Shown: positions 14,302-35,419 of the stretch, in pieces | Layout: every line of letters starts with the position of its first letter | Position numbering within the stretch: the stretch's first letter is position 1 | Origin: a virus | Lineage: Duplodnaviria > Caudoviricetes | Virus record (IMG/VR): IMGVR_UViG_3300010429_001883 | Span: 1-64,000 of that record | Strand: one strand, 5' to 3' | Length of the DNA stretch: 64,000 nucleotides | The notes under the pieces: model-generated | Told to the model about the DNA's origin: nothing | The model's database searches: none | The model's input: the letters and a program-made list of their open reading frames with translations, nothing else | Position numbers and translations under genes: made by a program

Positions 14302-17300
14302 GAGTCATGCCTCCTGAACAAGCTAAAATATTTTTCAATACCTTGACGAGTCTCCTCATCATATTCAGGGTACTGGTCATTGTATACCCTGAATACCCTC
14401 TGAAGAAGCTCTGTCGGAGCTACTTTCCAAATCAATGAAGTACGAAGATTATATCCTAGTACATCCCTGAAATCAGTAGCCCTTATAGCACCAAGAAGAG
14501 AGAAAAACCACATAGAGATCATATCATAGTGACCAGGTTTTGCAACTCTTCTCATGATGTCAGCCAGATTATGAACAACACCTGGCTTCTGTATTCTTCC
14601 TTCCTTATCCACAACACCATGCAAGAATCGGGTTACTTCCGACCATTCCATGGTTGACGTGAATCCTTCTTCGCTGTTGACATCAAACTGCTCTGCATAT
14701 TGCTGAGTCAGTTTGGTATACATTTCCATAACGACGAGGGCGTATTCTTTCAACTCGTTAACAGCCATGATATCCAGAGAAGCGTTAACTAGAGGATCAA
14801 GTTCTTTCAGGATGGCTGTGAAGATTGGCGTGTACATGTGCATGAAGCTCTGGTTAAAGATGATTGAATACTTATTCTCGTACGGAGTACCTGCATACCC
14901 ACGAGGGATAAGGCTGGTAAATTCCAGAGAGATGAAATCGTCAACGATTTCATAATACGGATGATTGAAGATTTGGTATGCAAGCTTCTTATTGTTTGGC
15001 AACCAAACGTTCAGCACCCAAATCCAATAATCACGTAGGAACATCCACCAATCCAAATATTGGTCTTTGGAATAGGGGATTTTGTGTCCAGTGTCGCGGA
15101 CAAACTCCAGGAGCATTCCGCTTAACGTGGGCGGCGAAGAGAGTTTTTCTGGGTTGAAGAACAGAATCGCGTTAACAGGATTTTCATGATCGTGAACGAA
15201 CAAAAAATCCTTTTCAAGTTGATCTGAATAATCAACTTGAATGATATTGTGTTTAGGCTTGAAGTCTTCGATAACGCGCTGAATATGTTGCCTGAGTTGT
15301 GTTTTCTCTTCGTCGGAAAGATTCTGTTTCTTGCAAATTCTTTCGAAGACAATCCTAGTCACGCGATTGTCTTCGATACCGATAGCGGCTTTGGAAGTAA
15401 GCGTTTTGTAAGCAGCATCAACGACTTCTGAGACGCTCATAATATCGCATTCGTTGATATTTTCGCCCTTAAGCCCTTCCAGCCTGCTACCCTGCTTACA
15501 GAATCCGGTAGCCCATGTTGGTAGAATGCCTGCCAGATCACCATCGAAATCACCTGAAGCAGTAGCCCAATCCTCCGGATGCAGTTCGACTACGTTTCCG
15601 AAAGACCAATCCACTACTTTCGCAGTGAATGAATCTCTCGTTCTCACCTTGCGAGAATCGCTTTCGGTAATGCAATCGAGATTCGGGTTTCTAACGATGG
15701 TGATATATCCGTTGGCATCAACGATGGGTTTGAAGTCTAGCGGGATTCGGCACTCGCCCTGCTTCAGTCCGATTCCAGGTGCGGCTAGCCGATACCCATA
15801 CTTGACATGGGTCATGCCTTTTTCGTTGGCTACAACCTTGTTAGCCAACTTGTAGGTACATTTGGCTTTGAGAGCAACCTTAGCCAGAAGGTTGGCAACT
15901 CTTCCAATGACCTGCGGGTGGAACGGAGCCATGCCCATTTTTATCAGCACCATAGCTGATTGGAAACTGGACAGGCTGCTCTGGGACATGTTATCGTATT
16001 CAAGGATCTTCTCAACTACACTATACTTTTGGGAAACAACCTTTCCTTCACACATGAAAGAGTCTTCGATAGCGTTTCCCTTAGTATAGATCAGATCAAT
16101 GACTCGCTGAATTTTAGCGAGTTCATTACGAATCAAACCCTTGATACGATCTTTGTCGGGTAGTCCTCTAGCAACCAATTGACGGCTAACATTGCTATAA
16201 GGCTTCTTAGCAGCGGCATCGTCACTAAAGATTCCGATATCATCGGAACTAATCTCACATGCAGGATATGAGATAGTTGGTGTGGCACAGCCCGGACATT
16301 TTGTAACGTTACGGCTCAATGGCAACCAACGCCATGAACATCCGGGGTTTTCACACATGGACAAGCGATGTTCTCGAGCTTCAAGATCAAGACGTGCACG
16401 ACGTTCTTGCTTGATGGCCTTCGGGTTAAAAACAACCCGAATAGTGTCCACATCAAGCGGAAGACCGAATTCAGATTCCCATACGTGGTCTGGAAGGAAT
16501 CGAATGCATCCTTTTACGGAGCTGGATGCACACTGCAGCATTGTCACATCGCTAATGTAGCCACTTGCAGCCATCAGTTGCATTCCATAGGTTGCCGGCA
16601 TGAAGGCAATGATGCCATCATACTGAGTCAACCGATCAAGGATAATTCCACGCAACAAGGGCTTTTTGGATTTCTCCAAAATCTCTCCGAGCCTCACACG
16701 AGATTTGGCTGACGGAGTCGCAAAATAGCTACTTTCGAAATGCAGCTGGTTACAGGGCATCACGAATCGCTTGACGGTAGTGACAAGCGACATTCTGGAC
16801 ATTCTTTCCTCATTTCCCATTAGTGGGACGTAAAACAGTTCCATCCCACTACGGTCAGTAAACGATGTAAGGTGAGGCTGATTTCCATACTTCGCATAGA
16901 AATCCTGGAATCGTTCAAAGGTTTCTGGAGTCGGCGGATACTCAGATGGAGCAACTGGAAGATTCTTAAACTGCTTGGGGATTCTATCCTCCGGCCAAGG
17001 GCCAAAGCGCGCTTTCAGGCAATCTTCTCCGATAAGAATTCCAAGCTTATCTTCGCCGTTGCCACGAAAAGCAGCTTCATCACAATACAGGAATGTGGCA
17101 CTAGTCACCATTCCTGTACTAGTGCCGAGAGGATAGAGGGCATCGATGGTTGGAACACCGGTTCGTCCAGTCATTACTTGTTCAAACAACTGTGGTGATC
17201 CAAGCATCGTATTTCTCTGCCCCGTGTTAGGATCAATAACCTTCACGAGATAGATGCTTCCGCCCATGCGTTTAGCTGTGGTATAAGCCAAACAAGAACG

Positions 17301-17738
17301 CATTCGGAATTTGTGGGTTTGAAGATAGTTTTCGATCTCAATGATAGGTCGATCAAATGATCGGCTTTTCTTGAGGATCTTAGCAAGTTCTTCATCATCA
17401 GGCATACGAAAGTTGGGAACTTTCGTTTTCCCGATGATCTGCTGGGCAATGAGATAGTATCCAGGGACTTGAATAAGGTTATAGCGCCAGATATACTCCA
17501 ACTCATTTTCAAGATCGCGTTCACTCATGAACGATGCTGGAGTTTCCGGACTGCAAAACCTTTTCACAAGTTCCAGGACTTTGTCCTTCTCATACTCGTC
17601 TGAACTGAAGGTTTGCCCATTGATTGAGAATGAAAGAATTCTACAGATATTTCCTGCGAATCTTTCAATCTCGATACTGTATGGGCCCACCTCAATCAGG
17701 CTGAGAAGGGCCCGCTGGGCCATCTCCTTTCGATTCAT
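14298..17738 (-). CDS. RNAP-1: single-chain double-psi-beta-barrel RNA polymerase (YonO/cellular-RdRP-like)
   Basis: VKG, IVRNPNL and ASGDFDGD (DFDGD at 15537-15551) in the expected order; Zn ribbon CENPGC...CPGC; 1146 aa. Confidence 0.82.
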   Translation of the reverse strand: MNRKEMAQRALLSLIEVGPYSIEIERFAGNICRILSFSINGQTFSSDEYEKDKVLELVKRFCSPETPASFMSERDLENELEYIWRYNLIQVPGYYLIAQQIIGKTKVPNFRMPDDEELAKILKKSRSFDRPIIEIENYLQTHKFRMRSCLAYTTAKRMGGSIYLVKVIDPNTGQRNTMLGSPQLFEQVMTGRTGVPTIDALYPLGTSTGMVTSATFLYCDEAAFRGNGEDKLGILIGEDCLKARFGPWPEDRIPKQFKNLPVAPSEYPPTPETFERFQDFYAKYGNQPHLTSFTDRSGMELFYVPLMGNEERMSRMSLVTTVKRFVMPCNQLHFESSYFATPSAKSRVRLGEILEKSKKPLLRGIILDRLTQYDGIIAFMPATYGMQLMAASGYISDVTMLQCASSSVKGCIRFLPDHVWESEFGLPLDVDTIRVVFNPKAIKQERRARLDLEAREHRLSMCENPGCSWRWLPLSRNVTKCPGCATPTISYPACEISSDDIGIFSDDAAAKKPYSNVSRQLVARGLPDKDRIKGLIRNELAKIQRVIDLIYTKGNAIEDSFMCEGKVVSQKYSVVEKILEYDNMSQSSLSSFQSAMVLIKMGMAPFHPQVIGRVANLLAKVALKAKCTYKLANKVVANEKGMTHVKYGYRLAAPGIGLKQGECRIPLDFKPIVDANGYITIVRNPNLDCITESDSRKVRTRDSFTAKVVDWSFGNVVELHPEDWATASGDFDGDLAGILPTWATGFCKQGSRLEGLKGENINECDIMSVSEVVDAAYKTLTSKAAIGIEDNRVTRIVFERICKKQNLSDEEKTQLRQHIQRVIEDFKPKHNIIQVDYSDQLEKDFLFVHDHENPVNAILFFNPEKLSSPPTLSGMLLEFVRDTGHKIPYSKDQYLDWWMFLRDYWIWVLNVWLPNNKKLAYQIFNHPYYEIVDDFISLEFTSLIPRGYAGTPYENKYSIIFNQSFMHMYTPIFTAILKELDPLVNASLDIMAVNELKEYALVVMEMYTKLTQQYAEQFDVNSEEGFTSTMEWSEVTRFLHGVVDKEGRIQKPGVVHNLADIMRRVAKPGHYDMISMWFFSLLGAIRATDFRDVLGYNLRTSLIWKVAPTELLQRVFRVYNDQYPEYDEETRQGIEKYFSLFRRHDS

Positions 17739-18055
17739 TGTTCCTCCTCATTGTTCCTCCCGATTTTTTGGATTTCTTCGTCGAAGAGCATGGGCCTGTA
17801 ATCTCCTAGCGCTACTCGCGCAAAGATCAGACCGCTGTACTCTCTCAAGAAAAGAGAAATAACTTTCTCAAGTTCTATCTCAATTCCTCTAAATACTGTT
17901 TCTATCGGTTCCACTTCCAGCAGAATTTCATCTGCTAGTTTTCTGCTTTTGATAATGAAAGGAACTACTAGTTCCCTGCCGTCTAGATTAAGGTATACCT
18001 TAGCCGGCATGTCGTTGTTAAGCCGGCGCGGAAACACTTGAATTTTCTCTATCAT
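17735..18055 (-). CDS. Hypothetical protein
   Basis: ATGA-coupled to RNAP-1. Confidence 0.7.
   Translation of the reverse strand: MIEKIQVFPRRLNNDMPAKVYLNLDGRELVVPFIIKSRKLADEILLEVEPIETVFRGIEIELEKVISLFLREYSGLIFARVALGDYRPMLFDEEIQKIGRNNEEEQ
17846..17862 (-). promoter_or_regulatory. TTCTCTTTT motif copy upstream of RNAP-1 (no hairpin)
   Basis: ctcaagaaaagagaaa is identical over 16 bp to the copy at 21305-21320; it lies about 110 nt before the RNAP-1 ATG. Confidence 0.55.
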
Positions 18056-18581
18056 CGTTTTCCCTCAAGCATACCGCGTTATTGGGAACAGATTGAAGAA
18101 TCTGTCCCATAGATTCCAAAACGGCTTCTTCCTTCATATCAGATCGTTCTGCATCCTCTCCGAAGGAAGGATAGAACGAAATGATAATGCTATTATGAAA
18201 AACACTAGAAAACCTTTTAACAGACTCAATTGTTTTGGAAAAGGCATGTCTAAATTGGGCCACTCCAAGATATTCGGATTTAGATTCGTTGTAGGTTGGT
18301 TTCACAATATAAAACAGACAATCAACTGTTTTACCATAGACTTTTACGCTCCAACCCATATAGTTGGTTAGTGCTGGAGCTTTCTGTATCATTGGAAGAG
18401 AAGAAACGATAAGTTTACAAAACTCATCGTTCTTAGCCATCATAAGGCTAATCAAAGGTGGAACGTAGAGATTCGTCCTATAGGTATAGGACGATATCTC
18501 AATAGGTACAATCAGGATATCTTGATTACCAATTGTACCTATAAGTTCTGCTTCCGTCCGATCAATTAACGTGACTTTCAT
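18018..18581 (-). CDS. Hypothetical protein, possibly a degenerate macrodomain
   Basis: LFYIVKPTY...AFSKTIE...IISFYPSFG...EEAV echoes macro IIHAVGP.Y...AY...SIAFPAISTG...EAA, but the Gly-rich loops are missing. Confidence 0.5.
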   Translation of the reverse strand: MKVTLIDRTEAELIGTIGNQDILIVPIEISSYTYRTNLYVPPLISLMMAKNDEFCKLIVSSLPMIQKAPALTNYMGWSVKVYGKTVDCLFYIVKPTYNESKSEYLGVAQFRHAFSKTIESVKRFSSVFHNSIIISFYPSFGEDAERSDMKEEAVLESMGQILQSVPNNAVCLRENDDRENSSVSAPA

Positions 18582-18870
18582 GTTCTAATGCTCCTAGAGC
18601 TTTTTCAAGAATTGGTGGAAGATTTTGAATAAATTCATGTATCGTGCAGTGCCATACGTTTAGGTCTTGGCTTAACCTAGTTACTGTATCAATACAATGA
18701 ATTCTTGCCTCTTCTTCTGGAGTAAAAATGCAGAATTTATCATTCACTTGTAGAAGACAACAAGTGATGTCGCTGAGATGGTCCCTATGGATAAGCCCGA
18801 GTTTTAAATTTTTGGATAATTTCGAGGAAGAGGATAATAGCGTTTTACAGAAAAATTGCTTCTTGACCAT
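18562..18870 (-). CDS. Hypothetical protein
   Basis: AGGAG RBS; operon context. Confidence 0.65.
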   Translation of the reverse strand: MVKKQFFCKTLLSSSSKLSKNLKLGLIHRDHLSDITCCLLQVNDKFCIFTPEEEARIHCIDTVTRLSQDLNVWHCTIHEFIQNLPPILEKALGALEHESHVN

Positions 18871-18924
18871 CCAGCTTCTCCTTGTTAATAGGTAGAATGT
18901 GGATAATGCATAATCGTCAGGCCG

Positions 18925-19321
18925 GGCTATCCACTATACTCTACTTAGAGCACGAGCATAGTGGATAGCCACGAGCCCGGGAAGCAAGTTACTCGTATAG
19001 GGCCGCTCCCTACCCGTTACTCCCTATACGAGAATCCTATACCTGGAGTAGGCTTGTTAAAGGACATATTAGGGTCTCCTACGTAGGGACTTTCAGTCTA
19101 AAGGATAGATTCTCGCCATTCTCTAAGTTGTTCCCAATAAAATGGAACCTCAACGGGTTTAAACCCGTTGACTTTTCCATTTTCTTCTCCATTAAAGGGG
19201 TTATGTAATTTCTACCTTTTTAGTTTAAGTAACTTATCAAAAAAAGAGAAAAAACAAGACATTGATCGTTTCTGAGTTAACGAAGGGGAATAACGTTAAC
19301 TCATTAGAAATCAATGTCTTG
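18925..19321 (-). ncRNA. Highly structured non-coding tract
   Basis: Perfect stems ggctatccactat/atagtggatagcc, ctcgtataggg/ccctatacgag, tcaacgggtttaaacccgttga and caagacattgat/atcaatgtcttg. Confidence 0.5.
19237..19254 (-). promoter_or_regulatory. TTCTCTTTT motif copy after a long hairpin
   Basis: tcaaaaaaagagaaaaaa is identical over 18 bp to 23081-23098. Confidence 0.6.
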
Positions 19322-19401
19322 CATGGAGAAAATAAGAGGTACGAGAAACATGGAAGGACTGAGACTGAAGGGCGAGAACTAATTCACTTTAAATCAGTAT
19401 T

Positions 19402-19629
19402 TTAGCTCCTTACCATAGAGTGCTTTGAAATAATCGCGTTAAGTTCACGTATAACGTCGATTAGTTTCTTTTTATCGCACTCTATGCAACAGGTGTCCGG
19501 ATCGATATCGACTTGGGACATGTCGCGCAAAGCGAGAACCAATTTTGTGCGAGCAGAAATTGCTTTGGAGACTGAGGAAGATATTTGAGCAGGAGATGCC
19601 GAGGATGATTTGTGCTTATAGCAGATCAT
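19402..19629 (-). CDS. Hypothetical protein
   Basis: AAGGAGGT RBS. Confidence 0.7.
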   Translation of the reverse strand: MICYKHKSSSASPAQISSSVSKAISARTKLVLALRDMSQVDIDPDTCCIECDKKKLIDVIRELNAIISKHSMVRS

Positions 19630-19986
19630 ACGATCACCTCCTTATATGGGATCGTTTCTTACCCTATAAGGGGAAGATCACGCCAACGGCGGCCACAACA
19701 TTGACAGTGTTCCCACGGCCAATGCAGGCCTAAAAGGTTCTTAATAAAGGCCGCGGTGAGACCACAGCCAAGTACCCCATATAATCTCCCCTAATAACTA
19801 GTAATACAACCAATACACCTCTTCCTAGTAAAGGAAGAGATGAATCAGAATCCAAGAAAATTGCAGAAATTAGAAAAGGAATTAGAAGGATTATAGGACA
19901 TTAAAAAGAACCTAGAAATTAATTAAAAAGAATTACAGGAATTAAGAGGAAGAGAGAGTAGGTGTGGTTGCAGAAACTCTGACTGG

Positions 19987-20002
19987 GCAATTTTCGTGCC
20001 AA
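19987..20002 (-). promoter_or_regulatory. Sigma-54 (-24/-12) promoter consensus
   Basis: Minus strand TTGGCACGAAAATTGC is an exact TGGCACG-N4-TTGC match; intergenic. Confidence 0.65.
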
Positions 20003-20073
20003 TCGAAGTTTCACCTTTTTTACACTTTTTTCTCTAAATTCCTGTAATAAATTTTTTTTAAATTTGGGAATTT

Positions 20074-20322
20074 CTAAGAATCGAGTATATTAGCAGAGAA
20101 ATGGTAGTCAGAGGTAGGCTTTCTACCTGCTAATTTATCGATCATATGTTGGGAAATTGCCTTATTAAAGGACTTACAGTTAACGAGAATGGGGATAGCC
20201 TGGCCCGTGACCTGCCAAGATTCACCATCAAATTGACCTTGTGATGCTCCACAATGGCATACACGCCAGTCGGGAAGCATCTTTACCATGTCCTTACATA
20301 CTGGACAGTACATTAGCATCAT
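20074..20322 (-). CDS. Zn-ribbon phage hypothetical protein
   Basis: CPVC..CHCG; GAGGT RBS. Confidence 0.7.
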   Translation of the reverse strand: MMLMYCPVCKDMVKMLPDWRVCHCGASQGQFDGESWQVTGQAIPILVNCKSFNKAISQHMIDKLAGRKPTSDYHFSANILDS

Positions 20323-20327
20323 GGATA

Positions 20328-20561
20328 TTACCTCCTATCCTCCGGTTTTCTTTGAGTATTGCTACTCAACTTTTCCTTATTCCATGCTATTACCCTAATT
20401 CCTTGGGTAAGATAGACAATGGAAGCAAGAATGGAAGCTGACATCCCTAATACCGTGTATATAGGGTCTTCTTGTGTTAGGTAGATAAGGGTTCCTACCC
20501 CGGAACTGAAGAGAGATAGCAGGAAAAGTACTACTGCTAACTGTAGCTTTTTCAATGCCAT
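20328..20561 (-). CDS. Two-TM membrane protein
   Basis: Two hydrophobic helices; AAGGAG RBS. Confidence 0.7.
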   Translation of the reverse strand: MALKKLQLAVVLFLLSLFSSGVGTLIYLTQEDPIYTVLGMSASILASIVYLTQGIRVIAWNKEKLSSNTQRKPEDRR

Positions 20562-20624
20562 AGGTGTTCTCCTTTTTATCTATAATTTAAATAACTTAAA
20601 CTATAGATATGTTTAGGGTTAGTT

Positions 20625-21306
20625 CTACTCTTCTTTTTTACCCTTTTTCCCATAATGGGAAGAGGTTATACCCAAAAAGAGGTAGTAGAGAGATAGATAT
20701 AGAGATAGTTATCCAGTAGTAGTTATTTAATGGACTACTATGTGGATATCGGTTTCGGGTCGCCTGCAAATTCCCATACCATCCTCCGGCCACGTATGGG
20801 TGTGGTTTAGCGGGCCCCCTGCGTAGAAAGGCGTTAATTCGCCTGCCTCTCCCTTAAAAAAGGAAGTCATTCGCAGGAGCTGTCGAGGTCGCCCGAAGGT
20901 CACTTACGACAGTGTTCATGCATTTGAACAGTCCTATTGTATTCATGTGTGGAGATGCCAACGAATAAAAGTCGTTAGCTTTTACCTGTTAATTCAGGTT
21001 AGTCTATGTGCTGCTAGGTTTACCCTGGCCTAGGGACTAGCTGCGCCGTAACTCGCCTGCCGGCGGGGCGCTCCACACAAGTTTATTTTCTGAAGTATCT
21101 TTTTATTAGTTTATAAATTCCGTAGAAGAGTAAGAAGATCCAGAATCCTTGGATTACTAGGATCTTTAGGCAAGTAAATCCTACTAGATCCCACATGGTA
21201 GCCTCCTTGGGATGGATACCGGGATTTTGATGTTACTCAAATAACGAGGTAATCCCGGAAACCTTTGTTATTTGGAAGAATCACAGGTGAGGTACGCTAG
21301 ATACCT
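20625..21306 (-). ncRNA. Large (~680 nt) structured ncRNA candidate
   Basis: No ORF of 60 aa or more in the track; nested stems; GCAGGCGA occurs three times; begins right after a motif copy. Confidence 0.55.
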
Positions 21307-21343
21307 CAAGAAAAGAGAAAGAAGGGGCTTGTTAGGCCCCTTC
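21307..21343 (-). terminator. Hairpin plus TTCTCTTTT motif (terminator/promoter cassette)
   Basis: GAAGGGGC/GCCCCTTC followed by TTTCTCTTTTCTTG. Confidence 0.7.
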
Positions 21344-21463
21344 AGTACTTGAGTTTCTGTTTCACTCCTTCAGACATCTTGAAACCCTGTACTTTTTCGA
21401 AGTGGGTTTCAAAATATCTTTCTTGTTTACGTTGTTCTTTGCGAGACAAGGGTCTCGCGCTGG

Positions 21464-21931
21464 TCAGTTTCCCGCGGGGGCCGGCATCGGAAGGGGGTCG
21501 TTCAGCTTGGCCACCTGTTTCCGCAGGCTGGGGATGAGCTTTTTGACTTCATCCAAGGCCTTGGTCAGCTTTTCAACGTGTTCCTTGCCGGCTTTCTTGG
21601 ACTCTTCGTCCTTTTCATCGGCAAGCTTTTCGTTGAGGCTCTTGATAGCCACTTCCAGTCTAAGAACTTCGGCGTTGGCTACAGCCAGGTAGTCAGCGGC
21701 ATTGTTGGGTGCCAGGCTGTCGATTTCCGTGGCGGACAGCTTCAGCAGCTTGCTGACCTTGATCTGGGCCGCGACGTTCTTCGAGCCTTCGCGGAAGTTC
21801 TTGATGGGGTGCTTGCAAAACGTGACGAGGCTGGTCATCGCACCGTGGATCGCGTCGTGAAACGCGTAATACAGGGCGATGCCGATAGCCGCTCCGAACA
21901 CACCGATCAGCACATTCTTCCAGTTGATCAT
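21464..21931 (-). CDS. Membrane-anchored coiled-coil protein
   Basis: N-terminal TM segment; GGAGGT RBS. Confidence 0.75.
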   Translation of the reverse strand: MINWKNVLIGVFGAAIGIALYYAFHDAIHGAMTSLVTFCKHPIKNFREGSKNVAAQIKVSKLLKLSATEIDSLAPNNAADYLAVANAEVLRLEVAIKSLNEKLADEKDEESKKAGKEHVEKLTKALDEVKKLIPSLRKQVAKLNDPLPMPAPAGN

Positions 21932-21932
21932 G

Positions 21933-22277
21933 TTAATACCTCCATGAGTATTTCATTCTTTTTCGGATTCTGATTGCCCAAAGAAAACAGTCGAAAACCG
22001 CGCCGATGCCGAGGGCAATAACGACAACGCCGAGGTTGGGTGCAGCAAACATGCCAGCTAGGACAGTTAGTGGAAGTCCCAAGTCCAGCATGATTGTTGT
22101 GATAGGGTTGGAATGACAAAATCGTCTGAACCATCTTGGTAGATGGAAGTACAGAGTTACGATGTTTATCGTTCCAAAGAGGATTGCGAGGGTAATGAGC
22201 ATGGTTACACCTCGTTGAGAGATTTCAGAAACACATATAGTCTTGGTAGAACTTTTGGTAGGATTGGTTTGATCCAA
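21933..22277 (-). CDS. Membrane protein (likely start MLITL near 22202)
   Basis: Three hydrophobic segments; GAGGTG before the internal ATG. Confidence 0.65.
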   Translation of the reverse strand: MDQTNPTKSSTKTICVSEISQRGVTMLITLAILFGTINIVTLYFHLPRWFRRFCHSNPITTIMLDLGLPLTVLAGMFAAPNLGVVVIALGIGAVFDCFLWAIRIRKRMKYSWRY

Positions 22278-22591
22278 TTGGTACCAAAGGGTAGTTGCAT
22301 CTTTGATATTCCTTGAGCATCAAGGATAGGCAGAAGTTCTGGGTTTTGCTTAATAGCATTTATGAGTATTTGTCCAGATCCTGGGCCTTTTTGTTGGAAG
22401 ATTGTTGCTTGCTGGTGTATTCGTTTGTACTCATCTTGGAGTTCTCGTGGTGTCTTTTTGGCTACAGCCCTGGCGTTGATGTAACGTACTGGCTGAGTTT
22501 TACTGTTCCACCATCTGTTGAGTTTTCTTGCTCCTACTATAAGCAAGACTGCTTGAATTGTGAAGTAAACGATAAATACGAATTCTAGCAT
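22205..22591 (-). CDS. Membrane-anchored hypothetical protein
   Basis: N-terminal TM segment; AAGGAG RBS. Confidence 0.7.
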   Translation of the reverse strand: MLEFVFIVYFTIQAVLLIVGARKLNRWWNSKTQPVRYINARAVAKKTPRELQDEYKRIHQQATIFQQKGPGSGQILINAIKQNPELLPILDAQGISKMQLPFGTNWIKPILPKVLPRLYVFLKSLNEV

Positions 22592-22601
22592 AGTTTACTC
22601 C

Positions 22602-23051
22602 TTATTTCAGTAGGATGAAAATCAGGGTGGTGACTGTTGCGCCGACGAGACTGCCAGCGGTAATGTATAGCAGAATTTTGGGCGTTGAGAACAACAACCC
22701 TTTGATGAAGATGCTCATTCTGTCATGGATTGGCTCGGGCGGGACGAACACAATGTCCGTTTCCAGCGTTTGCTGGATATGGGGTTCTATGTATCCGCCT
22801 AGCATTTCCATGTCTTCTGCATCGTCGATCATGGCTTGCTGCATTTCTTTTGCCGTGTCGTAGGCCATGGCTGCAGCCGCCGTTTGCCCATTTCGTGCGA
22901 TTCGGTCTGCCTCATTTAAGAGGCGGATAATTTCATTGTTGTCGTCATTGAGTCTTTGCTTGATGGCTTCTCTGTGCTCATGGTCTGGGTTGTTACCCAT
23001 AAGAGTACAGATGCCATCAATTCCTGATTCCAGAAAATCCATGAGTCCCAT
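22602..23051 (-). CDS. Hypothetical protein with C-terminal TM segment
   Basis: AAGGAGG RBS; motif copy 30 nt upstream. Confidence 0.75.
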   Translation of the reverse strand: MGLMDFLESGIDGICTLMGNNPDHEHREAIKQRLNDDNNEIIRLLNEADRIARNGQTAAAAMAYDTAKEMQQAMIDDAEDMEMLGGYIEPHIQQTLETDIVFVPPEPIHDRMSIFIKGLLFSTPKILLYITAGSLVGATVTTLIFILLK

Positions 23052-23080
23052 AGGCTATCCTCCTTAGTTGTAAAATCTAC

Positions 23081-23164
23081 TCAAAAAAAGAGAAAAAAGA
23101 CATGAAAAGTATCATAGCAGGCATGGTAAAAATTGCTGCCATCGATGAAGATGTACGTTTGCAT
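23081..23164 (-). pseudogene. 27-codon remnant resembling a NYN/PIN nuclease N-terminus
   Basis: MQTYIFIDGSNFYHACYDTFHVFFLFF*; it terminates inside the motif copy at 23081-23098. Confidence 0.5.
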
Positions 23165-23252
23165 GAATCCCCCTAAAATAGAACATGGGGTTACAAAGTA
23201 ACCCCATGGAGGTGATAAACTTAGACTCGCAAAGCGAATCTAAGGAGTTTAT

Positions 23253-23303
23253 TCAACCGATGACGTACGCTAGCATGTTGAAAATGTCCAGAATGATGTT
23301 CAT
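23253..23303 (-). CDS. 16-aa hydrophobic micropeptide MNIILDIFNMLAYVIG
   Basis: AGGAGGATAAC-ATGAAC initiation region, the same as at 26416. Confidence 0.4.
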   Translation of the reverse strand: MNIILDIFNMLAYVIG

Positions 23304-23454
23304 GTTATCCTCCTAAGTTTGGTTTTATATAACAGAGGGAGTGCCCTCTATAAGTAGAGCGTCAACAGATGGACACGGCGAGTCTGTTGCCGTACTCGGT
23401 TAAATTTACTATTAGAGACATGTCGTGTCGCGGTGTGGGCCGTGGGGCTAGTAC

Positions 23455-23688
23455 TCACTTATAGAGGTTCACCTCTGTTTTATTTTGGTTTTTGAGAGAG
23501 TACATGCTGTTATATTTCTTTTTATCATATCTTGCTTGCATGAGAGCAGAAACTCCAATGAATGCAGCAACTATAATGGGTCTTCCTACTTTGTATATTG
23601 TTATTGCGAGATCTGAAGCTTCTGCCACTTGGCCGAGGATTGGAACATGCTTACCTAGTTTTTTTAGATTTTTGAAGTATTCATTCAT
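23455..23688 (-). CDS. Small membrane protein (full-length paralog of 26294-26416)
   Basis: AGGAGG RBS; hydrophobic central segment. Confidence 0.7.
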   Translation of the reverse strand: MNEYFKNLKKLGKHVPILGQVAEASDLAITIYKVGRPIIVAAFIGVSALMQARYDKKKYNSMYSLKNQNKTEVNLYK

Positions 23689-23742
23689 ATTATCCTCCTA
23701 TCAGGCTAGTATTCACACCGGTTGGCGAATCTCTTCAAGAAT

Positions 23743-23958
23743 TCAATCTTGTCCTGGCATCTCTCTGTCTTGGCGAGTGCTTCCCTGGCCACGGGCTTCA
23801 GTGCCTCGACCAGGAGGTACTTCTTGTGGGCGTACGCCCACCCCGAACATGTCGGTGATGCGGATGAGGAACCCGGCGGTCAACCGGCCCACGCACTTGT
23901 AGCAGGTGACCGATCCCTCGTCAAACGACTTCCACATGCTACCCCTGAGGTCCTGCAT
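23743..23958 (-). CDS. Hypothetical protein
   Basis: GGAGG RBS upstream; the reading frame is otherwise uncertain. Confidence 0.4.
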   Translation of the reverse strand: MQDLRGSMWKSFDEGSVTCYKCVGRLTAGFLIRITDMFGVGVRPQEVPPGRGTEARGQGSTRQDREMPGQD

Positions 23959-24161
23959 GGCTCAGATCCTCCAAATTCAAAATGATCTGGTCTCGTCCTT
24001 TCAAACCGCCCCCTCCGGGCCATCTCATCGGAACATACCCGGAACGTAGGGGCGACGGTAATGCCCTTAACGGCAGCGGTAAATTGTCAACGAAACGACA
24101 AGCCAAATACGAATCGGGCGTCATCCCCGGATGTACGCCCGGAAATGACGCCCTGAATTCC

Positions 24162-26297
24162 TCAGCCGCCGTAAATCTTGGAGTAGATGTCCTGCGGGAT
24201 CTGCCGCTTGTATTTCCGCATGATCCGGTAAGCCGCCTTGGCTTGCTTCGGCGTGAAATTGAACTCCTGATCGGCCAGGGAATGGCCGAAGTCGGCGTCC
24301 ATCTTGTTGAACCCGGACCCGTCCAGAGCGTTGGCGTAATCGCACCGGTTGGCCACCATCTTGACGGCCATCTGCAGCATGGCCGACTGCTCCTCGGTCA
24401 GACCCACCTCAGCGAATGCCTTGGCTCGGGCTTCCGTGGTATTTTCCTTGGCCTTGGGGGCCGGGGTGGCTACCTTAGTAGCTTCCTTGGCCTCAACCAC
24501 GTCCCCGGCCTCTTCTCCGGGGAACCCGCCGATGAACCCCTGGGCCTCCAACTCCTCCATGGTCTCGGTCTGCGGGTGCTCCTGCTTCAGCACCTCCACC
24601 CGCTCCGTCTGCCGGTTCCACTCCTCGGTCAGACCGTTGACCCCCGCGCCGAGGTCCATGGCCCGATCGATGTTCTCCTGCTTGCCCACTATGATGTTGG
24701 CCATCCGGGAGTCGATGGAACCTTCCAGAACCAAGTGCTGCACCAGCACACCCTCGTTCTGGCCCTTGCGGTGGCAGCGGTCCTCAGCCTGGGTCACGTT
24801 GCCGGGCACCCAGTCGATCTCAAGGAACACCACATGGGATGAAGCGGTCAAGGTGATGCCCACCCCGGAAGCCCCCATGGTCCCCACGAACAACTGCACC
24901 GACCCGTCCGTCTGGAACCGGTCCACCGAGTTCTGCCGCTTCTCCTTGCTCATGTCCCCGGTGGAGAGGACCGCCCGATTCTGAAACTCGGTGAAGATCT
25001 GGTCGGCGACGTCCTTGTGCCAGCAGAACAACACCACCTTCTTGGCCGGGTCATCATCCAACAGGTCATACAGGTGGCTGATCGCGTACGGCACCTTGGC
25101 CAGCCCGGTCTCGTGCCGGATCACGCTCATCTCCTCGAACAACACCTGCTCGGCCTCATGCAGGTCCCGCACGGCGTTCCGGTAGGCTTCCTCGTCATTG
25201 GCCACCCTGGCCTGTTCCATGGCGTCCTTCAGCAGGGCGATGGCCTCCTGCTTGGAATCCCACAGGTCGTTGCCCCGCTTGATCAAGTCGGCCGCACCGT
25301 TGGCCGGAAGTTCGATCACCTGCCGCCGCTTCGGCGGGAGGTCCTTCATCACGTCCCGCTTCAACCGCCGGATCATGATGGTGGAGCGGAGCTTGGTCTG
25401 AAGCTCCTCCAAATTGGACGCCCCGGTCATATCCCAACCGAACCGGGTCTGAATGGCGTTGCAGTACCGCTTGGCGTAGGCCATGAAGTTGTTCCACGTG
25501 TTGGGGTCCAGCGAGTTGATCAGAGTCCAGAGTTCCACCGGCCGGTTCACGATGGGGGTGCCGGTCATGTAGATCTTGCGCTTGGCCGGGATCGGCTTCA
25601 CGGTCCAAGTCCGGATCTTCCAGTCCCATTTGCCGAGGATCAGCTTGGTCCGCATGGCCTCGCGGTTCTTGGCGTAGTGGGCCTCGTCCACCACCAGCAG
25701 ATCCCACTCGGCCGAGTGGATGAACCCGATGTACTTGGCGAGGATGTCGTAGTTGATGATGAAGATGTCGGCCGTGAAGTCGTCCTGCTTCCCGCCGAGG
25801 ACCGACACCCGCAGCGGCCGCACCAGCCACTTCTCGCATTCGCGCTTCCAATTGATCTTGAGGAAGGCCGGGCAGATCACCAGCACCCGCTTGATGTCCG
25901 GGTTCAAATTGACCACCCCGATCGCCTGGATGGTCTTGCCGAGTCCCGGTTCATCCCCGATCAGAGCGTTGCCCCGGTTGTACGCTTCAATAATCCCAGC
26001 CTTCTGGAAAGGCATGTACTCCAAGTTGGGGTTCGAGGGGATCTTGACCTCGGCGTCCGTGGCGAAAGAGGAACTGAACCGGGCAACCAACCGGCCCCGC
26101 CACTCGTCCAGGATATCCTTGGTCTCGCCGTAGGCCAGATCGTACAGCTTGTTGGCCACCTCGGTGGAGGGGGCGTACCACGTCTTGTGGGTCCCATCCC
26201 ACCGGAAACCGGCCCCCTTGGGAACCTCTCGCTCCTCGTACGGGCAGACCGTCTCGAACCGCTTCCGCTCCTCATCCCAAATCAGCTTAGTTTTCAT
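24162..26297 (-). CDS. SNF2/SMARCAL1-like helicase (annealing-helicase type)
   Basis: YMPFQ; GDEPGLGKT (Walker A variant); DEAH; MTGTPIVNRP; GVGITLT; QAEDRCHRKGQ; N-terminal GFRWD..K.WY domain. Confidence 0.92.
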   Translation of the reverse strand: MKTKLIWDEERKRFETVCPYEEREVPKGAGFRWDGTHKTWYAPSTEVANKLYDLAYGETKDILDEWRGRLVARFSSSFATDAEVKIPSNPNLEYMPFQKAGIIEAYNRGNALIGDEPGLGKTIQAIGVVNLNPDIKRVLVICPAFLKINWKRECEKWLVRPLRVSVLGGKQDDFTADIFIINYDILAKYIGFIHSAEWDLLVVDEAHYAKNREAMRTKLILGKWDWKIRTWTVKPIPAKRKIYMTGTPIVNRPVELWTLINSLDPNTWNNFMAYAKRYCNAIQTRFGWDMTGASNLEELQTKLRSTIMIRRLKRDVMKDLPPKRRQVIELPANGAADLIKRGNDLWDSKQEAIALLKDAMEQARVANDEEAYRNAVRDLHEAEQVLFEEMSVIRHETGLAKVPYAISHLYDLLDDDPAKKVVLFCWHKDVADQIFTEFQNRAVLSTGDMSKEKRQNSVDRFQTDGSVQLFVGTMGASGVGITLTASSHVVFLEIDWVPGNVTQAEDRCHRKGQNEGVLVQHLVLEGSIDSRMANIIVGKQENIDRAMDLGAGVNGLTEEWNRQTERVEVLKQEHPQTETMEELEAQGFIGGFPGEEAGDVVEAKEATKVATPAPKAKENTTEARAKAFAEVGLTEEQSAMLQMAVKMVANRCDYANALDGSGFNKMDADFGHSLADQEFNFTPKQAKAAYRIMRKYKRQIPQDIYSKIYGG

Positions 26298-26416
26298 CGG
26301 ACACCTCCCACTCCAACTTTGTAGATGGTGATTGCTAGGTCAGTACAGGAAGCTACTTGGCCTAGGATCGGGACATGTTTGCCTAGTTTTTTTAGGTTTC
26401 GGAGATACTCGTTCAT
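26294..26416 (-). pseudogene. Truncated 40-aa paralog of 23455-23688
   Basis: MNEYLRNLKKLGKHVPILGQVASCTDLAITIYKVG-VGGVR*; the stop overlaps the helicase ATG. Confidence 0.7.
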
Positions 26417-26569
26417 GTTATCCTCCTAGGTATCCTATAAATTTTAGAAAATAGGGAGAGGGCAAGATGCCGGTTATTGGAGTTATGCGTCGGGGCGGTC
26501 ACATTCAATGTTCCGCGCCATGCCACGCACTATCCGCCGTACTCACCCTCTCCCAGTGGAGGATACCAT

Positions 26570-26606
26570 CAAGAAAAGAGAAAAAAAGAGGGCACGGGCC
26601 CCCTTT
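26570..26606 (-). terminator. Hairpin plus TTCTCTTTT motif
   Basis: GGGGC/GCCCC hairpin followed by TTTTTTTCTCTTTTCTTG. Confidence 0.7.
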
Positions 26607-26871
26607 AGTTGATATTGGTGTTATTGTGAAGTAGCACGTTCACCAAGTCGGAGTCGAAATCCGGCTTGGGGTCGACGTGTGGTGCGAGAGTGGTCAGAAC
26701 GCTTGTAAGTGCGGTATCAGCCTTGATTAGGTCTTGTAGCACTTTGACGCTTAGTGCATTGTTCATGCTCTTGTCGGTGTCCATGGCGACGATCAGCATC
26801 TTTACCATGAATTCAACTTTGCCGAGCGCGCCGCAGAGAGCCGTCATAAACACTTCGTGATTGCACGGCAT
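26605..26871 (-). CDS. Hypothetical protein (start re-assigned to MPCNHEV)
   Basis: GGAGGT RBS precedes the ATG at 26871; same frame as track ORF 26605..26994. Confidence 0.65.
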   Translation of the reverse strand: MPCNHEVFMTALCGALGKVEFMVKMLIVAMDTDKSMNNALSVKVLQDLIKADTALTSVLTTLAPHVDPKPDFDSDLVNVLLHNNTNIN

Positions 26872-26901
26872 TGGTATACCTCCAAAGAAAGATATTACTA
26901 C

Positions 26902-26936
26902 CAAGAAAAGAGAAAAAAGAAGGCGTAAGCCTTCTT
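26902..26936 (-). terminator. Hairpin plus TTCTCTTTT motif
   Basis: GAAGGC-TTAC-GCCTTC followed by TTTTTTCTCTTTTCTTG. Confidence 0.7.
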
Positions 26937-26941
26937 TTTGG

Positions 26942-27445
26942 TTACAGTTTGAACTCGGTTGTGGCCAGGTTGACGATGTGGATGCCGTAAGCACGGGCTA
27001 ATCGGAGTGCCTGCTCGGTGCCGCCATGGCCGGGACTCCAGCAGATGACCATGTCTACTGGTGTCTTGAGGTCAATGCCGAGAATCTGGTGCATGTTGCG
27101 GGCGTGCAATAGGGTCGCTGCCCGCGAGCACATGTGCCAGGCTGGGTGATGGTCTGCGGCTAACGCCAGCGCTGCTTGTGACGGCCGGTTGAGTGGCGAT
27201 GTAGATCCGTTGAATCCTGGCCAAGGCAAGAATATCTCTTTCTTACCATTGGCACGGTCACACCCACGTTCGAACGCCGAGTCTGCGCCGGCCGCGGCCC
27301 CGGAACGTAGTACCCAGCCCTTCTGGGCCATTTCGAAGCCAATGATCTCCATTTGTTGTAGAACGGTTGTTGGAGTTCTTCTGGAACCAATACCGGCATA
27401 GACGTGTGTACGGAATGGGATTTGCTTTTCATTCTGTTGGCACAT
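26942..27445 (-). CDS. SLOG-superfamily (DprA/YspA-like) phage protein
   Basis: YAGIGSR.TP, LRSGAA.GAD, HARN..QILG, GGT.QA. Confidence 0.85.
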   Translation of the reverse strand: MCQQNEKQIPFRTHVYAGIGSRRTPTTVLQQMEIIGFEMAQKGWVLRSGAAAGADSAFERGCDRANGKKEIFLPWPGFNGSTSPLNRPSQAALALAADHHPAWHMCSRAATLLHARNMHQILGIDLKTPVDMVICWSPGHGGTEQALRLARAYGIHIVNLATTEFKL

Positions 27446-27540
27446 AGCTTGTATCCTCCAAAGAAAAAGAGTAAGTTCCCCTAGGTACCGTTTACTACTC
27501 GGTTTAAGGCCCTACGCAAACCTAGGGGAAAGAAGCAACT

Positions 27541-27577
27541 CATGAAAAGAGAAAAAAAGAAGGCCGAAGCCCTCTTT
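27541..27577 (-). terminator. Hairpin plus TTCTCTTTT motif
   Basis: GGC-TTCG-GCC hairpin followed by TTTTTTTCTCTTTTCATG. Confidence 0.7.
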
Positions 27578-27886
27578 TCATAAAGGTATTACAAGTACGA
27601 GCTTTTGGTGCTTACGCACCTTCCAGCATCCGTGGGATGATGCCGGGAAGGCCACAATAAGCGAGTCCGGCCAGATTTCCGGGCCATCATCTGCGTGCTT
27701 AGATGACAGCCAATGGGTTTCGATCTTTGTAGGGTCGAACTGGACGACCCACGGCCCGCGGCCGCCGGTAGATCGTTCTTCCCAACCCTCTGGGCACGGT
27801 GGAGCGATTCGCCCGCGGCAGAAATTACACTCGCAGGCGTTACGGAACGCTCGCCAGTTGTCGCCCCATTCATCTGGGGTTCTCAT
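27578..27886 (-). CDS. Hypothetical protein
   Basis: GGAGGT RBS; ends at a terminator. Confidence 0.7.
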   Translation of the reverse strand: MRTPDEWGDNWRAFRNACECNFCRGRIAPPCPEGWEERSTGGRGPWVVQFDPTKIETHWLSSKHADDGPEIWPDSLIVAFPASSHGCWKVRKHQKLVLVIPL

Positions 27887-27909
27887 GATTTACCTCCAAT
27901 GTAAATGTT

Positions 27910-27967
27910 TGGCGTGTGGGGGGATTCGAACACCCCCTGCCCGATGCTACTCGGGTTACTACACACG
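27910..27967 (-). ncRNA. 58-nt D-arm-less tRNA-like RNA ending in CCA
   Basis: CGTGTG/CACACG-CCA acceptor; CCCGA-GTAGCA-TCGGG hairpin; GGGGG..TTCGAAT-CCCCC T arm. Confidence 0.6.
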
Positions 27968-28044
27968 GAGCCATAACCGGTTTATGGCCCAGCACTATGC
28001 GCACTTGTGCTGGTTTTCGCCGGGTCGCTCTCCGCTACACACGC

Positions 28045-28060
28045 CATGAAAAGAGAATAA
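28045..28060 (-). promoter_or_regulatory. TTATTCTCTTTTCATG motif copy
   Basis: Identical over 16 bp to 28739-28754. Confidence 0.65.
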
Positions 28061-28066
28061 GGGGTG

Positions 28067-28258
28067 TTAGTCCCCCACGACCACCATGCTGGTCGCCATC
28101 GCGATGGTGGTGGCCTCACCATCGCTCTCAAGGCGGCGGACGTACTCGGCGTACGCCCGACGGGCCGCCTTGCGCTCATCCAGGCGGGCGGCAAGCGCCT
28201 GGATGGCCTCCGCCTCGCGGCGGCGAGTGTCGTTTTTGGAGTCCATGGCAACCTCCAT
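28067..28258 (-). CDS. Small hypothetical protein (likely start MDSKN)
   Basis: GGAGGT RBS; flanked by motif copies. Confidence 0.65.
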   Translation of the reverse strand: MEVAMDSKNDTRRREAEAIQALAARLDERKAARRAYAEYVRRLESDGEATTIAMATSMVVVGD

Positions 28259-28271
28259 AATTAAACTTAGT

Positions 28272-28304
28272 CATAAAAAGAGAATAAGGGGCCGGAGCCC
28301 CTTA
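28272..28304 (-). terminator. Hairpin plus TTATTCTCTTTTTATG motif
   Basis: TAAGGGGC-TCCG-GCCCCTTA hairpin. Confidence 0.7.
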
Positions 28305-28308
28305 GTTG

Positions 28309-28644
28309 CTAGAACGGATTCCCGCTGTCGGTCGCGGGCGCGGGGGCGGGCGCGGTGGTCGTGGTCGCGGGCTTTTCATCCGGGGACGAAGTGTCCTCGG
28401 TCAAAGTCCCGCGTTTGAACACTTGGGATGTCCCGCCTGTCTTGGTGGCGACCGCCACGGCTTTGTCGGCGTCGAACATGACCCCGGAGAACCACACGCC
28501 TCCGACATTGAGGCTAGCGGTGACAACCTGGGTGCCGTCAGCCTTGACCACCTTCTTCAGGAGAAGGGGGACTCCGCTCGCCAGCGCCACCAGGATCTGG
28601 GCCTCCGCGCCGAACTTGTCAGCGACCAATTGCTTGATAGACAT
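28309..28644 (-). CDS. Small beta-rich protein with T/P/A linker and -DSGNPF tail (SSB-like architecture)
   Basis: GGAGGT RBS before MSIKQL at 28644. Confidence 0.7.
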   Translation of the reverse strand: MSIKQLVADKFGAEAQILVALASGVPLLLKKVVKADGTQVVTASLNVGGVWFSGVMFDADKAVAVATKTGGTSQVFKRGTLTEDTSSPDEKPATTTTAPAPAPATDSGNPF

Positions 28645-28738
28645 TATCGTACCTCCAGGGCAAAGATTTTCAATCAATAGCAGAGAATCAGACTCCGTGA
28701 TGGGCCGCCAACAACCCACCACGGAGCCCGAAACTCAT

Positions 28739-28778
28739 CATGAAAAGAGAATAACAGGCGTTGGGATCTCCAACACCT
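28739..28778 (-). promoter_or_regulatory. Imperfect hairpin plus TTATTCTCTTTTCATG motif
   Basis: First full motif copy downstream of RNAP-2 in the direction of transcription. Confidence 0.65.
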
Positions 28779-28976
28779 AGCGGGATCGGCACATCCCACC
28801 AGGAAGAGAGCATTAATCCCCGCACCGGTGCTTTCCATTCTCCGCCACGGAGGAAGCTACTCCCCGCGAGACTGTCGGTGCGAGGCAGCAATTGGGCTAG
28901 AACACGTCCACAGACTCAGTTTCCTCTACTTACTAAGGAGGAGATCTATTGTTAGGCATATTCTCTCTCTTAGTAA

Positions 28977-29258
28977 CTAGCTGACTTTAACTATCTTCTT
29001 ATAGTCAGAAGATACTGTAAACTTGAGGCGATATTCCTTCGCCTCTGGTACACTCCATATTAGTGCCGGGACGGTAACAGTCCCATCCTCGTGCACCTTT
29101 ACTTGACAGTCATACATGTACGTATAAGCAGGTTGGCCAATGGTTTTCCTGATATACGCCATGATGACTGGTTTGCACCTGTCCATTATAGCACAGAGCC
29201 GTTCAAAGCTAGCAACGGCACGGGCTATCTCGGCCCTTTCCCTGTCAGAGGAGTTCAT
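28977..29258 (-). CDS. Hypothetical protein (start MNSSDRE)
   Basis: AAGGAGG RBS; TAATG coupling with the upstream gene. Confidence 0.65.
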   Translation of the reverse strand: MNSSDRERAEIARAVASFERLCAIMDRCKPVIMAYIRKTIGQPAYTYMYDCQVKVHEDGTVTVPALIWSVPEAKEYRLKFTVSSDYKKIVKVS

Positions 29259-29569: not shown

Positions 29570-29576
29570 CCCTCCT
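29551..29576 (-). terminator. Terminator after RNAP-2
   Basis: AGGAGGGGT/ACCCCTCCT hairpin followed by TTTT. Confidence 0.75.
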
Positions 29577-32928: not shown

Positions 32929-32938
32929 GGCTCCTCCT

Positions 32939-33280: not shown

Positions 33281-33527
33281 CTTGGCCTCCTAGTGCTTGC
33301 GGAGATAGCGAGCGGTGGCCTCGCAGATCTCCACAAGAACCCAAAAAATGAGGATAGCGAACACTGGCCAAAAGTAGGCCATTAGCTGTTCTCCTCGATG
33401 TGCTCGAGGACAGTCATCGCAACGGTGACTGCCCCGAACAAGATGACCACCGCGCCCACTGCGTATGCAATGAGCAACGGTGGGTACAAAATACAAGATT
33501 GGAGCAGCTGCTCCAATCCCAACGCCA

Positions 33528-35415: not shown

Positions 35416-35419
35416 TTTA

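Follow-up and report, generated by a model that had tools for sequence, protein, structure and literature searches.

Resemblance to described phage systems

Composite cassettes that join a terminator to a promoter are known from T4-type phages as promoter-early stem-loops (PeSLs; Arbiol et al. 2010, PMC2839356; Comeau et al. 2014, PMC4122927), and the Thermus phage P23-45 has class-specific promoters for its two two-barrel polymerases as well as a conserved terminator motif (Nat Commun 2024, PMC10770324). The present analysis concerns a 17 nt pyrimidine-rich element, matched by the pattern TTCTCTTTTYWTG, in the first 64 kb (64,000 nt, hereafter the window) of a single 148,472 bp IMG/VR virus record (IMGVR_UViG_3300010429_001883; Duplodnaviria, Caudoviricetes). 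Ten copies lie between the genes of two large polymerase-like proteins, here called 'RNAP-1' (P0001) and 'RNAP-2' (P0002), and most of them are fused to a hairpin. We lean towards reading these sites as terminator–promoter cassettes similar to the PeSLs of T4, with a candidate promoter that is not of the sigma-70 type and is read by a phage polymerase. Classed as linear, the record is ~78% complete by CheckV, and the public runs that contain it are from anaerobic digesters and sludge.

As with PeSLs, the candidate composite elements lie in intergenic gaps of a plastic region rich in small orphan genes, where they flank single-gene modules. Recombination between copies, leading to deletions, replacements and reordering among close relatives, is a further PeSL property that was tested here and found. 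PeSL promoters, however, are of the sigma-70 type (−35, −10 and AT-rich upstream sequence), are read by the host enzyme and are conserved over ~100 bp, whereas conservation here spans 17 nt without such hexamers. A further difference is that the hairpin sequences of the present sites are unconserved, the T-run of the candidate promoter is at the same time the terminator tail, and the phage has polymerase-like genes of its own. The cassette would work like a PeSL but is not one, since the defining sigma-70 feature is absent.

P23-45 is comparable in its two divergent single-chain polymerases (candidates in the present phage) and in a short conserved motif that clusters in an early block containing the other polymerase gene; in both cases relatives also carry the motif. 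For P23-45 the start sites and the polymerase occupancy have been measured, and neither promoter–terminator fusion nor cassette shuffling has been reported there. The PeSL is thus the closest system in function and P23-45 the closest in logic.

Two other systems share single features with the locus. The early promoters of the coliphage N4 virion RNA polymerase require a hairpin whose stem, loop and bases are defined. In both cases a hairpin adjoins a short conserved sequence that precedes early genes and is read by a phage polymerase (again a candidate here), but three copies and a near-copy of the present element lack a hairpin, and at the others stem and loop are free to vary. An N4-type hairpin promoter, with its obligatory 5–7 bp stem, 3 nt loop and conserved bases, was rejected on account of these variable or absent hairpins. 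Lambdoid morons are promoter–gene–terminator units with host promoters and no single common junction sequence. They resemble the present modules as autonomous single-gene units between other genes, often of deviant GC content, and differ from them in their host promoters and in lacking the one conserved junction sequence that is found here.

Single-chain polymerases with a DxDGD-type site are represented by YonO of SPbeta and gp66 of the crAss-like phage phi14:2 (PMC5467207; bioRxiv 10.1101/2020.03.07.982082). No promoter has been determined for YonO (PMC5467207), and no common motif was found for the early transcripts of crAss-like gp66 (bioRxiv 10.1101/2020.03.07.982082). Promoters of this polymerase class are barely known, P23-45 alone having defined motifs. 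With a clean multi-copy candidate that is conserved across lineages, promoter recognition in a new polymerase lineage could be tested directly, using two proteins and a 17-mer. The present system would also extend PeSL-type shuffling beyond T4-like phages and beyond sigma-70 promoters, with crossovers within a 17 nt element visible in environmental populations (sludge and anaerobic digesters). A terminator and an orthogonal promoter that have bases in common would additionally form a compact part, one that could be useful in synthetic biology.

The 17 nt element, its hairpins and its restriction to one gene block

From ~36 kb down to position 1 the genes are on the minus strand. Their order is a leader region, small genes, RNAP-2 (29575–32928), a block of small genes and non-coding RNAs, RNAP-1 (14298–17738), a ligase-like gene and tRNAs. 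A first-pass annotation of the window had listed ten copies of a 16 bp motif at + coordinates 17846, 19238, 21307, 23082, 26570, 26902, 27541, 28045, 28272 and 28739, by which the copies are named below. A pattern search recovers every one of them, all on the minus strand. Within the 148 kb of the record, which is not necessarily a complete genome, TTCTCTTTTYWTG has these ten matches (17846–28754) and none on the plus strand.

The 16-mer gives 11 matches when ≤2 mismatches are allowed, all of them on the minus strand, against 1.04 ± 0.97 in shuffled sequence. Column statistics lengthen the element to 17 nt, T-T-W-TTCTCTTTT-Y-W-TG-R, with sharp edges: a purine follows the TG in 10/10 copies, and outside either edge there is no conservation. 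In a weight-matrix scan of the record the ten copies score 27–30.7 bits and a near-copy at 14492–14507 scores 22.5 bits, while everything else stays at ≤16.9 bits, a clean gap. The near-copy, TTTTTCTCTCTTCTTG, has one mismatch to the 16 bp consensus and lies inside the 3′ part of the RNAP-1 gene, so that the earlier claim of a motif found only between the two polymerase genes holds for exact copies and fails for this one. Apart from coding repeats of a tail-fibre gene, the motif contains the most repeated 12-mer of the genome. The looser family pattern TTCTCT-N5-TG-R has 17 matches in the phage's own genome, where 2.8 are expected, and 13 of the 17 are on the minus strand at 14.5–28.8 kb. The motif is thus confined to one positional gene block and oriented as its genes are.

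Read in the direction of the genes, the first copy (TTATTCTCTTTTCATGA, 28738–28754) follows a 10 bp hairpin at 28755–28779 and stands ~95 nt before the next start codon. The second (TTATTCTCTTTTTATGA, 28271–28287) overlaps the tail of a hairpin at 28285–28304, with a gene start ~25 nt downstream. The third (TTATTCTCTTTTCATGG, 28044–28060) has a weak hairpin of only 4–5 bp (28060–28076), and a tRNA-like RNA begins at the G of its TG. Hairpins likewise precede the copies at 27540–27556 (TTTTTCTCTTTTCATGA; hairpin 27554–27579, with a stem of A-tract and T-tract), 26901–26917 (TTTTTCTCTTTTCTTGG; hairpin 26914–26939, next gene ~30 nt downstream, chimeric versions in other strains), 26569–26585 (TTTTTCTCTTTTCTTGA; hairpin 26585–26606, then a structured leader of ~150 nt) and 21306–21322 (TCTTTCTCTTTTCTTGA; 8 bp hairpin 21321–21343).

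The remaining copies, 17846, 19238 and 23082, have no abutting hairpin; two such copies had been noted at first, 19238 being the addition. Two of the three are identical in sequence (TTTTTCTCTTTTTTTGA). One of these, at 23081–23097, forms the 3′ end of a 27-codon open reading frame (ORF) remnant ~30 nt before the next gene start, and a hairpin is present at this place in other strains. The other, at 19237–19253, is followed by ~370 nt of structured non-coding sequence and then a gene (ATG at 18870). The last copy (TATTTCTCTTTTCTTGA, 17845–17861) lies within a 106-codon ORF (17735–18055), 123 nt before its stop and 108 nt 5′ of the RNAP-1 start codon, which agrees with its original description as a copy inside a coding sequence just upstream of RNAP-1. 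The variant copy in the 3′ part of RNAP-1 (TTTTTCTCTCTTCTTGG, 14491–14507) is also hairpin-less; it stands ~206 nt before the RNAP-1 stop and ~190 nt 5′ of the next gene start at 14301, and is identical to one copy in a distant relative (L002).

As had been said of most copies, a GC hairpin of variable sequence abuts 7/10 of them, and its tail and the motif have the T-run in common, in some cases with a matching A-tract. The seven hairpins have predicted energies of −12.7 to −18.9 kcal/mol and otherwise vary freely (loops of 3–8 nt, stems of 4–11 bp, unrelated sequences). These seven sites show what is expected of intrinsic terminators, a GC-rich hairpin with a direct T-run 3′ of a stop codon; 17846, 19238, 23082 and 14492 do not. 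Good terminators elsewhere in the genome (6706, 9968, 10020, 71994, 89143, 93403 and 98588) are without a CTCTTTTYWTG tail, and conservation at the present sites does extend, as first suggested, well beyond a U tract. Since hairpin-less copies and motif-less terminators both exist, the hairpin and the 17-mer are two separable modules, usually fused via their common T-run.

Downstream of every copy, 19–370 nt away, there is a co-oriented gene with a GGAGG-type Shine–Dalgarno site or a structured RNA. No sigma-70-like promoters were found in front of the genes of the motif region, where the motif is the sole conserved upstream element. Clear TTGACA-N17-TATACT promoters are located elsewhere, at ~36.2, 54.3, 55.4, 63.7 and 72.0 kb.

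The favoured reading is as follows. The GC-rich hairpin and T-run would end the upstream transcript as an intrinsic terminator. The 17 nt element, whose first T's are the T-run of the terminator, would then serve as a promoter that the host's sigma-70-type enzyme does not read, and transcription would restart at or just after the terminal TG-purine. The reader would most likely be one of the phage's own single-chain polymerases. We infer three things here: that the hairpins terminate, that transcription starts at the motif and which polymerase is the reader.

The same sites could instead be specialised termination or pause signals of a phage polymerase throughout, without any initiation. CTCT-N5-TG would in that case be a stop signal in DNA or RNA, comparable to the class II signals of T7 RNA polymerase or to the 26 nt motif of P23-45. 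Such a role would suit the seven copies that follow a canonical hairpin with a common T-run, the tandem cassettes found in non-coding DNA of a relative, an RNA contig that ends in the T-run and the precedent of P23-45, in which the conserved motif occurs at seven terminators near pre-early genes (PMC10770324). We consider it unlikely, as the copy at 17845–17861 and the near-copy at 14491–14507 lie in coding sequence well before the stop, a position that suits an internal promoter and not a terminator, and a copy before the RNAP-1 homolog of another lineage does likewise. The hairpin-less copies sit where the downstream gene needs a promoter; indeed, a downstream gene is obligatory and an upstream hairpin optional, and no other promoter candidate is present for about ten transcription units. 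A promoter is favoured further because the TG-purine at fixed spacing resembles a start site and segregates with the downstream flank, and because a copy precedes RNAP-1 in two lineages and starts the RNAP-1 gene run in a third.

Four metatranscriptome runs hold parts of the region in low-depth assembled contigs, which are unable to define transcript ends; they indicate only that the region is present in RNA libraries, and neither a gap in coverage nor an isolated contig end counts as evidence. Contig X15-7 ends at 28281, in the T-run 7 nt past the stem of copy 28272, and the upper end of contig X17-18 at 19236 lies 1–2 nt past the TG of copy 19238, a weak coincidence that is not significant. 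By a rough count of contig ends and target positions, ~0.1–0.2 such coincidences are expected by chance. RNA contigs of two studies end at the identical base 28649, one of them into adapter sequence. This base lies 5 nt before the ATG at 28644 and 3′ of the ribosome site, and may mark either RNA processing or a breakpoint between strains.

Contigs that bridge some of the copies imply that the motif can be transcribed, and the end at 28649, away from the motif, would mean that processing occurs nearby. Both agree with a pyrimidine-rich element that acts at the RNA level, as an endoribonuclease site, a regulator-binding leader or a boxA-like NusB/NusE site after a boxB-like hairpin. The CUCUUU core resembles boxA (GCUCUUUA), and rrn leaders place a hairpin before boxA. 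The G that precedes CUCUUU in boxA and the AACAA are missing, however, and antitermination sites occur once per operon and not after every terminator. Moreover, start codons follow at variable distances of 19 to 370 nt, a tRNA-like RNA comes after one of the copies and, should the hairpins terminate, the upstream RNA would not contain the core. An RNA-level element is therefore improbable. BoxA itself (consensus GCTCTTTAACAA, once per operon near the promoter) was rejected, as only CTCTTT is common to both and the ten copies come after terminators.

Module exchange between strains and conservation in distant relatives

Ten strain contigs of the same phage species were retrieved via two proteins of the region, and their gene content between the two large genes is variable. 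The window and 8/10 of these contigs hold 62 motif instances in which the core, TTCTCTTTT..TG, is invariant. The flanks, by contrast, reassort: 15 types of left flank and 13 of right flank combine in 19 ways, one hairpin type is combined with three different downstream modules across strains, and the module order is permuted in L007, L008 and L012. In L007 one chimeric copy combines the left side of the copy ending at 27556 with the right side of the copy ending at 26917, the crossover falling within the final three bases of the motif. The base after the TG moves with the downstream flank as flanks reassort.

Breakpoints of homology fall at the motif more often than chance allows, 8/25 unique breakpoints being within 12 nt of a copy against 0.9 expected under random motif placement (P ~5e-5). 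The motif is a junction where gene modules are exchanged between strains, and homologous recombination on the common 17-mer is the simplest cause of the breakpoints. Because an identical 17 nt stands at every module boundary, the element may also provide the short homology by which promoter–leader–gene–terminator modules would be deleted, swapped and reordered between strains.

Enriched breakpoints and reassorting flanks, together with an array of same-orientation single-gene cassettes that each end in a variable hairpin and a conserved core, could point to a recombination site or selfish repeat. Such a repeat, comparable to integron attC, would be without a transcriptional role, and motif conservation would reflect its spread by recombination. 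This appears very improbable. The record has no match to PF00589 or PF00239 and so no tyrosine or serine recombinase by that search, and the hairpins are short and of the terminator type, not attC-like. One copy and the near-copy are inside conserved genes, and the core and spacing are kept between lineages with ~28% identical polymerases while N5 is lineage-specific, which points to a co-evolving protein. An integron-like attC array was accordingly rejected, since no recombinase is encoded.

Not all variation between the strains follows the motif. An SNF2 helicase segment of 2.7 kb and high GC (window 23689–26418) is missing in one RNA-library contig, L015 and L016 and is truncated in L011; its deletion joins two paralogous small genes (starts at ~26416 and 23686) and not two motif copies. 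The modules between copies span 39% to 63% GC, which fits mixed origins, and the GC content of window positions 24000–36000 is 54–61% against 35–47% in the remaining genome.

Beyond the species, relatives are few and distant. Neither tblastn nor megablast against a phage collection found close relatives, scans of IMG/VR and JGI metagenomes with P0001 and its profile gave no match, and a word-index protein search with P0001 returned only itself. An exhaustive HMMER search yielded no more than four RNAP-1 homologs, all of them distant (29–32% identical by search and 26–29% over the A1 alignment). Relatives of RNAP-2 were found by word-index protein search with profile A2.

The family form TTTTTCTCT-N5-TG-R is found on the gene strand in two distant lineages (L005/L002 and L014), downstream of the RNAP-2 homolog in both; the polymerase homologs of these lineages are 28–31% identical to those of the window. 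In L002/L005 there are ~13 distinct sites (17 family-pattern matches over two overlapping loci) as well as weaker variants, all on the gene strand, and the form is a hairpin followed by TTTTTTCTCTC-YYC-W-TG-A. These copies lie between the RNAP-2 homolog and the RNAP-1 homolog, with one further copy directly after RNAP-1. The L014 locus, which has an RNAP-2 homolog of 30% identity, contains 13 family-pattern matches, 12 of them downstream of that homolog. In a further lineage, L003, TTCTCTTTTTATGG stands in coding sequence 137 nt before the RNAP-1 homolog and is read in the same frame (Ser-Leu-Phe) as window copy 17846, the host proteins being otherwise dissimilar.

Over all loci of the relatives, TTCTCT-N5-TG-R occurs 46 times on the gene strand and 0 times on the opposite strand. 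Motif and polymerase gene are both present in the window phage, L002/L005 and L003 among the RNAP-1 lineages and in L014 with an RNAP-2 homolog; in L001 and L004 the motif is absent or changed. A copy is positioned before RNAP-1 in two lineages, and the RNAP-1 homolog of the third is part of a packed gene run that starts at a copy. The T5-CTCT block and the TG-purine at fixed spacing are constant, whereas N5 is specific to each lineage. Such constant blocks with lineage-specific N5 are what is expected of a site read by a co-evolving protein, and not of a plain U-tract. A search of 50 kb of SPbeta, covering yonO and the yonK–yonN gap, found no copy of the family pattern.

The candidate polymerases and further features of the region

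RNAP-1 (P0001, 1146 amino acids, minus strand, 14298–17738) contains a GDFDGD motif that is invariant in five homologs. RNAP-2 (P0002, 1117 amino acids, minus strand, 29575–32928) has a GGADLDDE motif that is conserved in its homologs (GGADYDDQ in one of them), and no copy of the 17-mer upstream of it. With respect to a DxDGD metal-binding site, P0001 has the expected GDFDGD and P0002 only the variant ADLDDE/ADYDDQ. In the ESM Atlas both proteins adjoin clusters labelled PF05183 (RNA-dependent RNA polymerase, RdRP), the label that YonO-like proteins carry (feature lead 0.91), and in this respect they resemble YonO and gp66; in contrast, they show no detectable sequence similarity to YonO. Judged from sequence features, P0001 is likely and P0002 plausibly a polymerase, and both are treated as candidates only, because the basis is a DFDGD motif and a language-model lead, with no profile or fold match.

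If the element is a promoter, its reader could also be the host RNA polymerase, redirected by some small factor of the phage or by a sigma-like protein that escaped recognition, in the manner of the middle and late promoters of T4; the large phage proteins would then be uninvolved. The late genes of T4 are an example of short promoters that consist of a single block. Neither flanking 'RNAP' protein matches any polymerase by profile or fold, and the sigma-70-like promoters elsewhere imply that the host enzyme is used. On the other hand, a search of the record's proteins found no sigma-70 region-2 domain (and no T7-type polymerase), and the motif travels with homologs of both large proteins over lineages whose hosts may differ. 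The invariant GDFDGD of P0001 and the PF05183-labelled clusters beside both proteins also speak for a phage enzyme, and we give a redirected host polymerase little credence.

Reading by a phage polymerase leaves more than one candidate. RNAP-2 is the best of these because it is upstream in gene order and has no motif copy of its own, while RNAP-1 has a copy 108 nt before its start; even so, RNAP-2 as the reader is rather doubtful, and its place could be taken by RNAP-1, by a virion polymerase, should there be one, or by the host enzyme in modified form. Somewhat less doubtful, but still tentative, is a wider reading in which TTTTTCTCT-N5-TG-R would be the promoter of an uncharacterised lineage of single-chain DFDGD phage RNA polymerases, the 17-mer taking the stop, setting the restart and driving early-gene exchange. 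It would belong to a polymerase cascade in which the host or virion enzyme transcribes RNAP-2, which in turn transcribes the motif genes including RNAP-1. The first-pass annotation had proposed that each site is a stop-and-restart cassette whose terminator tail doubles as the RNAP-2 promoter. The fused yet separable modules, the co-oriented gene or RNA downstream and the relatives support the cassette arrangement, whereas initiation and the role of RNAP-2 are parts that we only infer.

Several observations weigh against a terminator–promoter cassette read by a phage polymerase. RNA contigs run through copies 28045, 28272 and 19238. The conserved 26 nt motif of P23-45 is located at terminators, so a conserved tail could belong to termination (PMC10770324). 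Two of the five RNAP-1 lineages are without the motif, L001 having none and L004 only a hairpin with ACT-T5-TGG. At L005 8113–8546 six tandem hairpin-and-motif cassettes are packed into ~430 nt of non-coding DNA, an odd arrangement for promoters. Nothing ties the motif specifically to RNAP-2. As for the proteins, P0001 and P0002 have no sequence match in Pfam (PF05183), PHROG or PDB, hhalign matched neither RNAP-1 with RNAP-2 nor either of them with YonO, and the AlphaFold model of P0001, with a predicted local distance difference test score (pLDDT) of 44, was too poor for a fold search.

Two features of the relative L005 are of separate interest. Its RNAP-2 homolog (1679–6874), 31% identical over 95% of the query, is part of a fusion protein of 1731 amino acids that also has PIF1-helicase and NUDIX domains. 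Its tandem cassettes, between which there are structured spacers of 40–140 nt, could be small RNA units or the leftovers of deleted modules.

The tRNA-like RNA that begins with the G of the TG of copy 28045 occupies 27910–28045 on the minus strand (136 nt). It has an acceptor-like stem of 8–9 bp and a canonical T-arm, and its z-score against shuffles is −3.0. Default ARAGORN and Rfam did not call it, and Rfam at a permissive threshold gave chance microRNA-type matches only; under relaxed settings, ARAGORN interprets it as a tRNA that has an irregular 47 nt insert. All strains examined have it immediately behind a motif copy, and three different neighbours occur on its upstream side. Several other ORF-free stretches with strong predicted stems (18871–19236, 19630–20073 and 20562–21080, minus strand) are candidate non-coding RNAs, and several of these lie directly 3′ of motif copies. 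The 27-codon ORF at copy 23082 (23081–23164, minus strand) starts with MQTYIFIDGSNFY, resembles an NYN/LabA-type N-terminus and stops at the TGA of the motif. It looks like a gene truncated when cassettes were joined, with a normal hairpin at this position in other strains.

Two other types of promoter were considered and rejected. A Bacteroidetes-type promoter (TTTG/TAnnTTTG) was discarded because there is no upstream TTTG block and the ribosome sites are strong GGAGG sites, and the 12-mer GAACAAAAATAC, tried as a second promoter class, proved to be coding or a chance repeat. Sigma-70-like promoters are located in the window at 36150–36200 (+), 54330–54370 (−), 55400–55440 (−) and 63690–63730 (+), and in the genome at about 71.6, 72.0, 89.1, 93.4, 98.6 and 121.6 kb. 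TTGACA-N17-TATACT with a recurring ATACTAT block upstream of late or structural operons forms a second promoter class, apart from the pyrimidine motif. Finally, L001 contains at 3493–3800 more than 15 repeats of TGTTAACA with a period of ~12 nt and an assembly gap inside, a segment that looks like an iteron or origin region.

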